A stretch of DNA of 49,093 bases, from NCBI GenBank assembly GCA_963694535.1, contig CAVODE010000003.1, forward strand, positions 1-49,093, in the 5' to 3' direction. The DNA comes from Dehalococcoidia bacterium. GTDB taxonomy: Bacteria > Chloroflexota > Dehalococcoidia > UBA2979. Positions 18,951-42,604 of the stretch are shown piece after piece (within the stretch, counting starts at the first letter, position 1; each line of letters opens with the position of its first letter). The notes under the pieces were generated by a model that saw only the letters and a list, made by a program, of their open reading frames with translations, did no database searches and was not told where the DNA came from. A program made the position numbers and the translations under genes.

Positions 18951-19056
18951 GATTGTCCTTATTAGTCGACCCAGTTAAGGGCCTTGAATGGTATCTCTAA
19001 ATAGCCTCAATGGCGATAATCAATCGCTTAATGAAGTTTTTCGGTATTATCATTGT

Positions 19057-19131
19057 GGGCCTGTAGCTCAGTGGTAGAGCAATCGGCTTTTAACCGATTG
19101 GCCGTGGGTTCGATCCCCACCGGGCCCACCA
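19057..19131 (+). tRNA. tRNA-Lys (anticodon UUU)
   Basis: GGGCCTG/CGGGCCC acceptor stem, AGCTCAGTGGTAGAGC D-arm, ATCGG-CTTTTAA-CCGAT anticodon arm, GTTCGAT T-loop and encoded CCA. Confidence 0.98.
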
Positions 19132-39059: not shown

Positions 39060-40307
39060 TCAGATGATTCCATTACTTCGAAACTTTATTACTTTTTCCT
39101 CTTCATACCCTAGTAGATCGATCAATATCTCATCGTTATCAGCGCCGGTACTTGGTGTGGGGCCACTGATTTCACCCTGCCCTTTTTCGAGTTTCCATAT
39201 CACTCCGCGGTAGACCGAATCAAGAGAGAAATTGTTGTCGGTCACGGTGAGACTACTTCGGTGAAGGCTGTTGAGATTCTCATCGTTAACTAGGTCCAGC
39301 GCCCCCATGACTGGGTATGCTGGAATTTTGGACTGTTGGAGAATTTTTGTCAGTTGCATTGCTGTGTAATTCTTAGTCCATGATTCAACAGTCTCGTCTA
39401 ATTCATCTTGATTATCGAGTCGGCCCTGTAATGTTTCAAACTTAGAGTTTGTAATATTCTTTGATTTTTGTGCTGCTAGATCTTTAAATACTTCCCATTC
39501 CTCTTGATTTCGAACTGAGATTGACACCCATTCATCGAGTCCTGATGTTTTGTAGTAACCGTGTGGTGCTGTCGCTGGATATCTGTTGCCTTGAGGACCA
39601 GCAACTCGGCCGTTTAAAAAGTAATCCATGAGTGGTTCAGCTATTCGTTGAATACAAGCTTCTCCCTGAGCTAGGTCAATATGTTGGCCGCGTCCGGTCG
39701 CGTCGCGATATTCAAGCGCCGCAAGTATTGCAAAAAACGCATGACCTGCCGCCGTCGGATCCAAATCTGCTTGGTCTTCTTGAGGATGGTCAGAATCGTG
39801 GTACCCAAGAACACTTTTTATTCCATAGAGAGCAGCCAGAGAGGGACCATAGGTAACGAGATCTCTCCAAGGGCCATCGGTTGCCCCTGTAGCCGAGAGT
39901 GAGGCCAGTATTATCTTTGGGTTAACCTTTGTAAGAACGTCAAAGCCGAGACCTAACGAAGGCATTACGCGGGCTGAAAAGTTTTCGACTACTACGTCGC
40001 TGACTGCGATGAGCTTCTTATATATTTCTTTACCATCTTTTGTTTGCAGATCCAGGCTTAAGCTTTTCTTACCTCGATCAAATGCGTGATATGCCATCGG
40101 ATCAGAGATATCAACTGCATCTCGAGTTGCTGTACCAACCATTCCTTTGCCTGCCATGGATACTCCCGATCCACCCGTAGGAGATTGTATTTTTATGACT
40201 TCCGCGCCCATGTCCTTAAAGCTCATTCCAAGAAGGGGTCCAGCCCAGACATGGCCGTGATCTATTACTCGTATTCCGCTGAGTGGACCGTCAGTTGTTG
40301 TAGTCAT
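39060..40307 (-). CDS. Family III CoA-transferase (CaiB/BaiF)
   Basis: GPLSGIRVID...VWAGP, MGAEVIKI, DRGKKS, VVENFS and LDPTAAG motifs. Confidence 0.93.
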   Translation of the reverse strand: MTTTTDGPLSGIRVIDHGHVWAGPLLGMSFKDMGAEVIKIQSPTGGSGVSMAGKGMVGTATRDAVDISDPMAYHAFDRGKKSLSLDLQTKDGKEIYKKLIAVSDVVVENFSARVMPSLGLGFDVLTKVNPKIILASLSATGATDGPWRDLVTYGPSLAALYGIKSVLGYHDSDHPQEDQADLDPTAAGHAFFAILAALEYRDATGRGQHIDLAQGEACIQRIAEPLMDYFLNGRVAGPQGNRYPATAPHGYYKTSGLDEWVSISVRNQEEWEVFKDLAAQKSKNITNSKFETLQGRLDNQDELDETVESWTKNYTAMQLTKILQQSKIPAYPVMGALDLVNDENLNSLHRSSLTVTDNNFSLDSVYRGVIWKLEKGQGEISGPTPSTGADNDEILIDLLGYEEEKVIKFRSNGII

Positions 40308-41518
40308 TAGGTAATCCCCAGCTTTGCAAGACTGGATCTTTCAGAGGCGGTGAGTCCTAATCTGGTTTTAAAGAATTCCTCATTATGCTCGCCAAGCTGT
40401 GGCGCAGGCCGGTAAACTGCCCACGGTGTTTTTGAAAATAGATATGGCGCGCCCGGTATTTTATAACTGCCAACAACAGGATGTTCGATCTCATGCCAAA
40501 ATCCTCTGAGAGTTAAATGTTCACTTTTGGCTATTTCATCGACCGTGTTGACTGGTTGGAAAGGAATTCTGTTCTCGGAGAACAGTTTAAATAATTCTGA
40601 TCGAGTTTTACCTTTCATCCATGGATGCCAAAATGCGTCTAATTCCTTGTGCCACTCGAAAGACAGCCATCTATCGGAGAGCCTCGGATCATCTGCCCAG
40701 TCAGGATTATCCATAAGATTGATAAATCGTTTCCATTGCTCATCTACCATCGTTATTACCTCAACAAAGCCATCAGAGGCTGGAGCAACCTGCCATGGAT
40801 AAAATCCGCTTCGATGTGTACCGTCTCTTGAGCCGAGTATTCCTTGAAAGACAAATCCCGGAACACCTGAGCCGCCTAGGTAACTCGCCATAACCTCTAC
40901 CACAGAGATCCACGCATGCAGGCCTTGGTTAAGTTGTCTTTTCTTGCGCAGCGCGAGTAGAGCCGCGATGGCACCATGAATGCCGCCCTGGAAATCGGCC
41001 GCACAGTAAGGCAGCCAAAGCGGAACTTTATCAGGGCTTCCAATCTTCTTCGAGGCACCTGAAGCGGCTGTAGCCGTTAATGCTGTACCCGCCCAGTCTC
41101 TATATGGCGTGTCATAACCAAATATTGTGATCGATGACATGACTAGCATGTCGTTTTTTTTGGATAGTGATTCATAACTCAAAGGATCGTTTGCGCCGTC
41201 CTCCAGAGAGAGATTACTGATTACTAAATCTACATCTGCGACAGCCGAGATCAATAGGTCCTGACCGTCTTCAGTAGCCAAGTCAAGAGTCACACTTTTT
41301 TTGTTAGTGTTGAGGAACAGGTGTAACCCGCTTTTCTCTATATGCGGAATGTCTTTTGGAAAAGGACCATGGCTACGGAGCGAATCACCTGTTATAGGTT
41401 TTTCTATTTTGATAACTTCAGCACCTAGATCAGCCAATAATTTTCCAGCGTAGGCCACAGAGATGAAGTCACCGATCTCGAGTACTCGTAAATTTTTCAG
41501 TGGTCCGTTTATGTCCAT
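40307..41518 (-). CDS. Family III CoA-transferase (CaiB/BaiF)
   Basis: LADLGAEVIKIE, NTNKKS, ADFQGG and APQLGEHN motifs. TAATG stop/start overlap with the downstream gene. Confidence 0.93.
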   Translation of the reverse strand: MDINGPLKNLRVLEIGDFISVAYAGKLLADLGAEVIKIEKPITGDSLRSHGPFPKDIPHIEKSGLHLFLNTNKKSVTLDLATEDGQDLLISAVADVDLVISNLSLEDGANDPLSYESLSKKNDMLVMSSITIFGYDTPYRDWAGTALTATAASGASKKIGSPDKVPLWLPYCAADFQGGIHGAIAALLALRKKRQLNQGLHAWISVVEVMASYLGGSGVPGFVFQGILGSRDGTHRSGFYPWQVAPASDGFVEVITMVDEQWKRFINLMDNPDWADDPRLSDRWLSFEWHKELDAFWHPWMKGKTRSELFKLFSENRIPFQPVNTVDEIAKSEHLTLRGFWHEIEHPVVGSYKIPGAPYLFSKTPWAVYRPAPQLGEHNEEFFKTRLGLTASERSSLAKLGIT

Positions 41519-41677
41519 AACTATGTCCTGTGCCGGAATCATAGTGAACACTGTCAACTTTTTCTATGAAAAATCTCAAAAGACTTAAGAATTACGTCAA
41601 ACCAATGCATTTGGTGAGGTGTGAATTAGAAATTCTTATTCACATAGCAGAGGCTTTTGAGAGACAAATTCAACTTG

Positions 41678-42157
41678 CTATTTATTTTTTCGCATTTCGG
41701 TGAATTTAATCATCTTAATTGCTTCGGAAACATTCATTCGACCGATTGGCCCTGACGCGTATAGTGATCCTAGAATTTTGCCATCAGTATCTAATAAAAA
41801 TTCCGCTGGTTGGGAATATTCACCGTGGTGATCTACTCCCCACCAACCACCGATTGATTCGGTATGGCGCTTTTCTAGGCTGTGAATCATAGTGAATGTA
41901 AGATTATTTTTCGTGACCACCTCGGTTGCCTGGTCATGTGTATCTACGCTGGCCGCATACACTGTCACTCCCAGCTGGTCCAACTCTTTTTTTGCAGACT
42001 CCCATTCGGCCAACTGCCGATTGCAAAACGGTCACCAGTGTCCACGGTAGAAAAGCACAGCCGCGTAGTTACTGGAAATATCTCTAGGTAGTTCAATTTT
42101 GTCCTTGTCGAGTGTTTTAAAAACAAGTGAGGGGAAGGTCATATTTTGTTGAAGCAT
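41678..42157 (-). CDS. Peroxiredoxin-like (AhpC/TSA, redoxin) selenoprotein, 159 aa, Sec at codon 42
   Basis: Reading through TGA at 42032-42034 gives MLQQNMTFPSLVFKTLDKDKIELPRDISSNYAAVLFYRGHW-U-PFCNRQLAEW...VYAASVD...QPAEFLLDTDGKI, i.e. UxxC in the family's FYRGxWCPxC motif. Confidence 0.88.
41990..42031 (-). promoter_or_regulatory. Putative bacterial SECIS element
   Basis: On the mRNA right after UGA: lower stem UUUUGCA/UGCAAAA and upper stem UCGGC/GCCGA with loop AGUUG, starting 16 nt after UGA with G at loop position 2. Confidence 0.72.
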
Positions 42158-42175
42158 ATAGTTAAATACTATCGC

Positions 42176-42604
42176 CTATTCGGGCGCAAAACTTGATCGA
42201 GCTTGTGCTCCCCATTTGCCATCAATTTTTCTCATTATCCAAAGAGCTTGCTGAGTGGTAATTGCGCGCTCCTGTTCGTCGTAACGAGTCCATTGAATAA
42301 AGAGGTGTACTTTTTTTTCGGAAGCTTGCATCACTTCAACTGAGTCGAGCATGGTGTATTTCCAAGATACTCCTGCCCTATCCATAAAGCCGCGTAGATA
42401 TTTTTCTTCCAGTTCCTTTCTAGTTTGATAAATAGTTACATGTTCACCGGCAATGCGGATATGTGGAATGTGTAACCTCTCAAAAAGAGTTCTATGGTCC
42501 GCGTCATTTAGAGCGGTCATATATTCCTGAACAGCACGTATTGCACCTGATTCAGCCGCCCGAAGCTGCTGTTTAGTTATTTTCTGAGGTTCTAATCTTG
42601 ACAA
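42176..42604 (-). CDS. Hypothetical protein, probable NTF2/SnoaL-like fold
   Basis: Pattern AVQEYMTALN...PHIRI...KVHLFIQWTRYD...WIMRKIDGKWG. Start uncertain. Confidence 0.7.
   Translation of the reverse strand: MSRLEPQKITKQQLRAAESGAIRAVQEYMTALNDADHRTLFERLHIPHIRIAGEHVTIYQTRKELEEKYLRGFMDRAGVSWKYTMLDSVEVMQASEKKVHLFIQWTRYDEQERAITTQQALWIMRKIDGKWGAQARSSFAPE

Follow-up and report, generated by a model that had tools for sequence, protein, structure and literature searches.

A Prx-like gene of the UxxC kind with a very probable selenocysteine codon in a marine Dehalococcoidia genome

Results

The locus and its interrupted reading frame

The sequence analysed here, referred to as the window, is a stretch of 49,093 nt from a Dehalococcoidia bacterium (contig CAVODE010000003.1, assembly GCA_963694535.1), whose own genome is designated G000. 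On its minus strand lies a gene of the peroxiredoxin-like (Prx-like) type in which a single in-frame TGA is very probably read as selenocysteine (Sec). The features of the locus are collected in Table 1. The frame runs from the ATG to a TAG at 41680-41678, and its only internal stop is the TGA at codon 42, which stands in the read-through context AAVLFYRGHW-U-PFCNRQLAEW. The original prediction had described one frame interrupted by this TGA, giving FYRGHW-[TGA]-PFC, of which the open reading frame (ORF) track would report a Cys-less 111-residue fragment alone. Both parts of that description were confirmed. Under translation table 11, the gene body consists only of a 111-residue ORF (42013-41678) with a TTG start and zero Cys, and a 41-residue ORF lies upstream of it.

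The choice of the upstream ATG is supported by the N-terminal sequence MLQQNM, which is kept across three congeners (G000, G002 and G003), and by the LQQG..FP that stands N-terminally in distant homologues. Read through the TGA, the 159-residue product matches the Pfam family AhpC-TSA (PF00578) at 2.1e-17, with 63.6 bits vs a cut-off of 26, and Redoxin at 6e-12.

Truncation of such a gene by standard annotation had also been anticipated, and it is visible in the public databases. The nearest named NCBI protein, 93% identical, is a 111-residue entry called 'MAG: redoxin domain-containing protein [Dehalococcoidia bacterium]', and the public 111-residue proteins P0003 and P0004 start at the TTG that encodes Leu49. 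Among 24 database homologues, 13 are without the N-terminal part, their first residue lying at or beyond the Sec position, whereas six are full-length and have Cys there. Trp is printed at the Sec position in four of the 24 (P0002, P0007, P0008 and P0015), and likewise in P0047; in these entries the TGA was presumably translated under another code. One entry, P0006, prints Ser at the same position (FYRGHW-S-PYC).

Table 1. Features of the locus, with positions in the window
Feature	Position	Strand	Remarks
Prx-like selenoprotein (predicted), complete coding sequence	41678..42157	-	159 codons plus TAG stop; ATG at 42157
Predicted Sec codon UGA, residue U42, UxxC position 1	42032..42034	-	TGA/Cys alignment; aligned with the first Cys of ResA WCxxC
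Cys45 codon, UxxC position 2	42023..42025	-	Falls on the peroxidatic Cys in alignments with AhpC and BCP; almost invariant among 45 homologues
Putative bacterial SECIS element	42001..42025	-	Inner hairpin 42020-42006, loop 42015-42011, short coaxial extension
TTG (Leu49), start chosen by gene callers for the 111-aa ORF	42011..42013	-	Within the putative SECIS loop
142-aa ORF	42176-42604	-	Ends 18 nt before the selenoprotein ATG
Two tandem CoA-transferase family III genes	39060-41557	-	415 and 416 aa; Pfam 2.5e-79 and 5.3e-80

Conservation of the TGA and selection on both sides of it

Six-frame searches were made of 61 related genomes and of 401 genomes sampled evenly from the class, and matches were obtained in 12 of the former (E <= 1e-5) and 30 of the latter (E <= 1e-12), with G000 counted in both. 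From these, 32 loci were extracted (L019-L022, L031-L058), leaving out three second-copy matches, two of which are listed without a stop and one with one TGA. According to the original prediction, UGA here takes the place of a catalytic Cys in homologues. At the position of the U42 codon, 24 of the 32 loci have TGA, five have TGC and three have TGT, and the TGA form is spread over at least 10 families of the class. The remaining in-frame TGAs of these loci are found at the gene end, 115-129 codons further on.

The 480-nt gene is also present in the congeners G002 (92% protein identity) and G003 (86%), and the synonymous divergence (dS) among G000, G002 and G003 is 0.41-1.07. In these three comparisons, codons 1-41 have Nei-Gojobori ratios of nonsynonymous to synonymous rates (omega) of 0.066, 0.086 and 0.064, and the corresponding values of codons 43-159 are 0.073, 0.140 and 0.096. 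Since omega is low both upstream and downstream of the TGA, both halves must be translated and constrained; the flanking codons are under purifying selection on either side, and not under the relaxed selection that had been named as an argument against a selenoprotein.

These data bear on the possibility that the TGA is a genuine stop, within either a pseudogene or nonsense allele, or between a 41-residue peptide and a separately started 111-residue protein. Exactly these two pieces are produced by table 11, the N-terminal part is missing from 13 of the 24 public homologues, and a decayed copy of the gene exists in the congener G001. A genuine stop would nevertheless have to be maintained at one codon across so many loci and families, with Cys codons in all others, and downstream of a segment whose omega is 0.06-0.09; moreover, the 111-residue piece would miss the entire active site. 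The decayed copy is itself quite unlike the gene of the window. In G001, a remnant lies between intact neighbours (L023:1440-1830) and has suffered a ~270-nt deletion, small indels with frameshifts, and the loss of the TGA, which is replaced by TCA; selB is still present in that genome. The remnant shows what decay of this gene looks like when selection lapses, and differs in this from the gene of the window. We therefore regard a genuine stop as very unlikely.

Occurrence in other assemblies and in seawater samples

A TGA can also enter a frame through a sequencing or assembly error, and the genome at hand is a fragmented assembly (158 contigs that total 1.93 Mb, at 92.75% completeness and 3.5% contamination). 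The same TGA is nevertheless found in the separately assembled G002 and G003 and in 21 more distant loci, and also in contigs from environmental DNA and from an RNA library. Sixteen seawater DNA runs contain 92% or more of the words sampled from 41600-42260; eight of these runs are flagged as a possible source of the assembly and eight are not. In seawater run X9, a 21-kb DNA contig holds the whole of this stretch with the TGA kept and a single difference, A>G at 42125, which changes codon 11 from CTT to CTC and is synonymous. In a metatranscriptome library (X17), one contig of 213 nt (41876-42088) reads across the TGA and has zero differences. The contigs of two other RNA libraries (X18 and X19) are limited to the 3' portion of the gene and the spacer that follows it, and none of X17-X19 spans the whole gene. 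A TGA unique to this assembly, which would have undermined the proposal, is not what these samples contain, and we consider the likelihood of an error at this codon to be practically negligible.

A hairpin downstream of the UGA

The original prediction had drawn two stems directly 3' of the UGA as a selenocysteine insertion sequence (SECIS)-like structure, namely an inner hairpin UCGGC-AGUUG-GCCGA, 16 nt from the UGA, and an outer stem UUUUGCA/UGCAAAA; the first held up and the second did not. The inner hairpin has a 5-bp stem and a 5-nt loop, an energy of -6.7 kcal/mol and a UGA-to-loop distance of 16 nt, and it is found in the minimum free energy (MFE) fold and the centroid fold alike. Beyond an A-A mismatch, it is extended by two more pairs, with a local MFE of -9.1 kcal/mol over 27 nt and -10.8 kcal/mol over 39 nt. 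The outer stem can be drawn in the window yet is not conserved. Over the 24 Sec forms, its positions are paired in 39.1% of cases vs 38.2% in shuffled alignments, a level that 171 of 500 shuffles reach and that slid registers equal. The two-stem structure that includes it has -10.1 kcal/mol vs the MFE of -10.8 kcal/mol obtained with another extension, and only -7.8 kcal/mol in G003.

Bacterial SECIS elements are described as having an apical loop of 3-9 nt and an upper stem of 4-16 bp (PMC13188914, Fig. 2 legend), with a G in one of the first two loop positions that is usually followed by G or U, a UGA-to-apical-loop distance of 16-37 nt and an MFE <= -7.5 kcal/mol (PMC13188914). The loop size, the stem length, the loop G (A-G-U-U-G) and the spacing of the inner hairpin all lie within these limits, and the geometry, as predicted, fits the bacterial SECIS model.

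Comparative evidence was obtained at several levels. In the three congeners, the 21 nt AATCGGCAGTTGGCCGAATGG are invariant, synonymous sites included, although dS is 0.4-1.1. For the wider set, columns 10-36 after the UGA were folded uniformly in the 24 Sec and eight Cys forms. This uniform local fold supersedes a bulge-free hairpin search, which had located the loop at 16 nt in 12 of the 24 Sec forms and had picked different hairpins in groups g41 and f30, with stems of 4-10 bp in the relatives; the count of 12/24 is replaced by 21/24. In these 21 Sec forms, the uniform fold has its loop, AGUUG or AGUUA, starting 16 nt after the UGA, on stems that vary in sequence and length. The other three have a 4-nt loop (AGUU, AGUU and GGUC) 20 nt after the UGA, i.e. 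four nt further. An AGUU loop is accordingly present in 23 of the 24 Sec forms, the remaining one having GGUC, vs none of the eight Cys forms. The mean local MFE is -8.36 kcal/mol in the Sec forms vs -2.68 kcal/mol in the Cys forms (Mann-Whitney p 0.002, among genomes that are kin).

The pairing itself was assessed on a fixed 10-bp helix. In the Sec forms, 70.9% of the cells are paired, 17 cells have changed on both sides, and the covariation is 0.279, a value reached by none of 500 shuffles; slid registers give 0.03-0.12. At the pair 15-29, for instance, 14 of the 23 distinct Sec rows have GC, five have UA and two have CG. In the Cys forms, the same helix is paired in 35.0% of cells, with a covariation of 0.089 that 455 of 500 shuffles reach. 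The two forms also differ in codon usage at this site. For the Leu at +7, 21 of the 24 Sec forms use UUG or UUA and all eight Cys forms use CUN, and the codon at +6 is CAG in every Sec form vs three of the eight Cys forms; this choice of codons would fit a constraint acting on the RNA. The case for a putative SECIS element is one of conservation, covariation and contrast between Sec and Cys forms, and not one of stability.

Two of the Cys forms, L043 and L044 (in G063 and G121), carry a hairpin AGCU-AGCC-AGCU at the site of the shifted hairpin AGCU-AGUU-AGCU in the Sec forms L037 and L042. Neither G063 nor G121 has a selB over the cut-off, and these hairpins could reflect a recent Sec-to-Cys change.

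Sec machinery and the meaning of TGA in this genome

The organism had been predicted to have the Sec trait, and its genome contains the corresponding genes. A tRNA-Sec scores 68 bits vs a gathering score of 47 and is called tRNA-SeC by ARAGORN, with anticodon tca (UCA). The selB and selD genes score 330 bits (cut-off 242) and 352 bits (cut-off 125), respectively. One in-frame TGA interrupts selD (G000:C4:36501-37439, L017), so that the selenophosphate synthetase of this organism is probably itself a selenoprotein. Of selA, the C-terminal third is found (model positions 324-445), on the first bases of contig C153 (G000:C153:1-384, L009). We read this as an assembly break, because selA is full-length in the congeners G002 and G003 and in the distant relative G056 (525-551 bits).

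Apart from G000, the TGA form occurs in 23 genomes, and selB exceeds the cut-off in every one of them, or 24 of 24 when G000 is counted; it does so in three of the eight Cys-form genomes (G173, G139 and G313). It falls below the cut-off in the Cys-form genomes G161, G063, G121, G104 and G178, which are 97, 98, 97, 93 and 70% complete, respectively. Because the genomes are kin, this co-occurrence of selB and TGA is to be taken as a pattern and does not amount to a statistical test.

A TGA may alternatively be read as a standard amino acid, i.e. as Trp, Gly or Cys, through a changed code or near-cognate suppression. The W printed at this site in the five database entries mentioned above, where some pipelines apply a TGA=Trp code, speaks for such a reading. 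It is opposed by the window itself, in which TGA ends eight of 37 stop-to-stop frames of at least 200 codons, and for this reason we conclude that TGA is not reassigned. The homologue column is Cys, and neither Trp nor Gly; the genome has tRNA-Sec (UCA), selB and selD, and the TGA form is confined to selB genomes; and the covarying hairpin follows the codon in TGA forms only. Decoding as a standard amino acid is hence extremely unlikely.

Elsewhere in the window (19055-19129, plus strand), the tRNA-Sec model gives a sub-threshold match of 39.7 bits vs 47, which is presumably an ordinary tRNA gene.

Protein fold and active site

An AlphaFold model based on 45 homologues was obtained with a predicted local distance difference test (pLDDT) score of 96.7 and a predicted template modelling (pTM) score of 0.92. 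It places residue 42 directly before helix 43-54, at the N-cap. In Foldseek searches with this model, peroxiredoxins rank first, with Bcp4 (3hjp) at a template modelling (TM) score of 0.85, followed by Prx6 and AhpC types, and a search with the family profile retrieves BCP 2cx3 at 1.2e-19. Cys45 falls on the peroxidatic Cys, i.e. the Cys of F-V-C-P in AhpC and of S-P-V-C-T in BCP 2cx3. Residues Y37, R38, G39, C45, G139 and R140 are near-invariant in the family.

The catalytic signature of peroxiredoxins comprises a Pro, a Thr/Ser, a Cys and an Arg (PxxxT/SxxC plus Arg). In the alignment with 2cx3, R38 takes the place of the Pro, U42 that of the Thr/Ser and P117 that of the Arg in 'kRavF', and because three of the four catalytic positions are thus lost, we do not file the protein as a peroxiredoxin proper. 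The top single-sequence match in the PDB is the thiol-disulfide oxidoreductase ResA (4nmu, E 1e-4), whose W-C-x-x-C is aligned on W-U-P-F-C. Against the NCBIfam equivalogs that were scored (PrxU NF040737, BCP NF006960, AhpC TIGR03137, SelL-related NF040769 and ResA NF002854), no curated cut-off was reached, the best scores, in descending order, being 35.0, 32.8, 29.9, 29.1 and 27.7 bits vs 140, 272, 270, 120 and 170. The sequence has no hydrophobic N-terminal stretch, and the protein is therefore probably cytoplasmic. The model suggests a peroxiredoxin-fold scaffold that bears a redox centre of the thioredoxin type, in which Sec is the predicted exposed, attacking residue at the helix N-cap.

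As to function, a thiol-disulfide oxidoreductase, and not a peroxidase, is the assignment that we favour, with moderate confidence. The competing proposal concerns function only and leaves the gene a selenoprotein. It holds that the protein is a true peroxidase: H2O2 or an organic hydroperoxide would oxidise Sec42 to a selenenic acid, which C45 would then resolve, a GPx-like chemistry on a Prx scaffold. The fold and the top profile matches, which are BCP-type peroxiredoxins, point in this direction, as does the position of C45 on the peroxidatic Cys, and the near-invariant, family-specific R38 and R140 might stand in for the missing catalytic Arg. The replacement of three of the four active-site positions argues otherwise, and so does ResA as the best single-sequence match, with WCxxC on WUxxC. 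In addition, the motif is the thioredoxin-like UxxC, which is distinct in print from the TxxU of Sec-containing peroxiredoxins (PMC1088965). On balance, a peroxidase appears unlikely, though it is to be taken seriously.

A more far-reaching proposal is that the clade marked by YRGxW-U/C-xxC...YASGPIGR constitutes a distinct, uncharacterised enzyme class, in which Sec attacks the peroxide or other substrate, a built-in resolving Cys lies one helical turn away, and R38 and R140 rebuild the active site. Searches of the PDB and NCBIfam returned no solved structure or curated family model that covers this clade. We consider the proposal doubtful; if it were true, the clade would represent a third route to a selenium peroxidase, besides GPx and Sec-Prx.

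Neighbouring genes and a second family

The 142-aa ORF upstream of the selenoprotein gene has no Pfam match and is 67-84% identical in three congeners, including G001, in which the selenoprotein copy is decayed. Of the two tandem CoA-transferase genes, the first has a stop that overlaps the start of the second at 40307. A PNPOx-like gene is also among the neighbours.

A second, longer family was encountered in the same bacterial family, in which an AhpC/TSA domain with FHRSxRW-U-PFC is fused to DsbD_N (Pfam). Five of its six loci have TGA (L024, L026, L027, L028 and L029; e.g. L026:1351-2343) and one, L025, has TGT. Read by eye, all five Sec forms carry a 6-bp hairpin, GCAGCU-CGUGC-AGCUGC, ~20 nt after the UGA, and this hairpin is broken in the Cys form.

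Discussion

Relation to known families

Prx-like selenoproteins have been known since 2005 (Zhang, Fomenko and Gladyshev 2005, PMC1088965), when the thioredoxin-like UxxC of these proteins was separated from the TxxU of Sec-containing Prx. In the 2008 GOS (Global Ocean Sampling) study, the family Prx-like 1 (pfam00578, UxxC) was reported with 225 selenoproteins and 2,740 Cys homologues (Zhang and Gladyshev, PMC2398784). A 2016 survey counts a 'Prx-like thiol:disulfide oxidoreductase' in its selenoprotein family table, and its main text makes no mention of Chloroflexi or Dehalococcoid (PMC5029168). A 2026 review places the family under 'predicted with high confidence' (PMC13188914), and in these publications its function is still given as predicted only. 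In the library that was searched, no paper mentions both 'selenoprotein' and 'SAR202'.

The gene of the window is a member of this Prx-like family, because it has the features by which the family is defined, i.e. PF00578, a UGA-first UxxC and Cys homologues. It shares with the published descriptions the distant homology to Prx, the thioredoxin-like motif with Sec in first place, the marine origin and a putative bacterial SECIS element directly after the UGA, and in these descriptions we found nothing that differs in kind. The limited novelty that the original prediction had claimed for the gene is consistent with the published record (PMC1088965, PMC2398784, PMC13188914).

Three other groups invite comparison. 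With the peroxiredoxins proper (BCP/PrxQ, AhpC, TxxU Sec-Prx and PrxU NF040737), the protein has in common the fold and the alignment of C45 on the peroxidatic Cys. It differs from them in that Sec stands three residues before the peroxidatic position and not on it, and in the substitution of Pro, Thr/Ser and Arg by R38, U42 and P117; the PrxU model gives 29.9 bits vs its cut-off of 270. The ResA/TlpA type, with WCxxC on an AhpC/TSA-Redoxin scaffold, resembles it in the alignment of WCxxC on WUPFC, and the ResA Pro is aligned with the Pro that precedes strand 'FLLD'. Unlike ResA-type proteins, which are exported and anchored in the membrane, the present protein is without a hydrophobic N-terminus, and it obtains 27.7 bits vs 170 with the NCBIfam ResA model. 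The SelL-related proteins (NF040769) and PRX_like2 likewise have CxxC or UxxC on a Prx-like scaffold. The SelL-related model gives 29.1 bits vs 120, over residues 7-90 only, and by the NCBI criterion the protein is a non-member.

Proposed mechanism

We conclude with high confidence that 42157-41678 on the minus strand is a genuine gene for a selenoprotein, of the Prx-like kind with UxxC. Sec insertion and the catalytic cycle, with its substrate and reductant, are what we infer from it. By analogy with the pathway established in bacteria, the AGUUG hairpin 16 nt past the UGA would be bound by SelB with its Sec-tRNA(Sec, UCA), and delivery of Sec at UGA 42 would compete with release factor 2. 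In the structural model, U42 would cap the N-terminus of helix 43-54 and pair with C45 as UxxC. The selenolate of U42 may then attack an oxidised substrate, such as a disulfide or possibly a peroxide, whereupon C45 would resolve the intermediate to give a U42-C45 selenenylsulfide, and a thiol system such as thioredoxin could re-reduce the latter.

Points that weigh against a selenoprotein gene

A number of points weigh against this conclusion and are gathered here. Several of them concern the hairpin. Its 16-nt spacing is the lower limit of the SECIS model; the inner hairpin alone (-6.7 kcal/mol) misses the limit of -7.5 kcal/mol and passes only with its extension, in a manner that depends on the stretch folded; and the 66 nt that surround the UGA have an unexceptional folding energy (z = -0.57), which for this reason was not used as support. 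The conservation of the hairpin nucleotides is partly due to the conserved peptide R-Q-L-A. Since the compared genomes are kin, the shuffle counts and the Mann-Whitney p overstate their independence, and the 10-bp helix was derived from the very sequences on which it was tested.

Others concern the genome, its relatives and the environmental samples. The N-terminal two thirds of selA were not found in the G000 assembly. No match was obtained in four of the seven other genomes of the genus (75-83% complete), from which it follows that the gene is either dispensable or often unassembled. Run X9 may be the source of this assembly. The X17 contig is compatible with transcription and is no proof of it, because RNA libraries can hold DNA. 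The neighbours were considered as operon partners and rejected, as the 142-aa ORF, the CoA-transferase and the PNPOx-like gene recur, among the 32 loci, only in the three congeners, and they provide no functional lead. Finally, the proposal stands on sequence analysis and structural models.

Significance

The main value of the finding lies in the correction of an annotation, the public entry for a 93%-identical gene being a 111-residue protein without the active site. The 24 Sec and eight Cys forms, together with their hairpins, provide a data set, small and clean, on which SECIS elements of the class can be modelled. Existing knowledge of selenoproteins is unchanged by this gene. For the organism, it would add one more member to the selenoproteome of a marine Dehalococcoidia genome. 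An extra selenoprotein fits the more than 40 published for some Dehalococcoidia in BSepDB, which reports two genomes of the class with 49 and 46 selenoproteins (PMC13326102).

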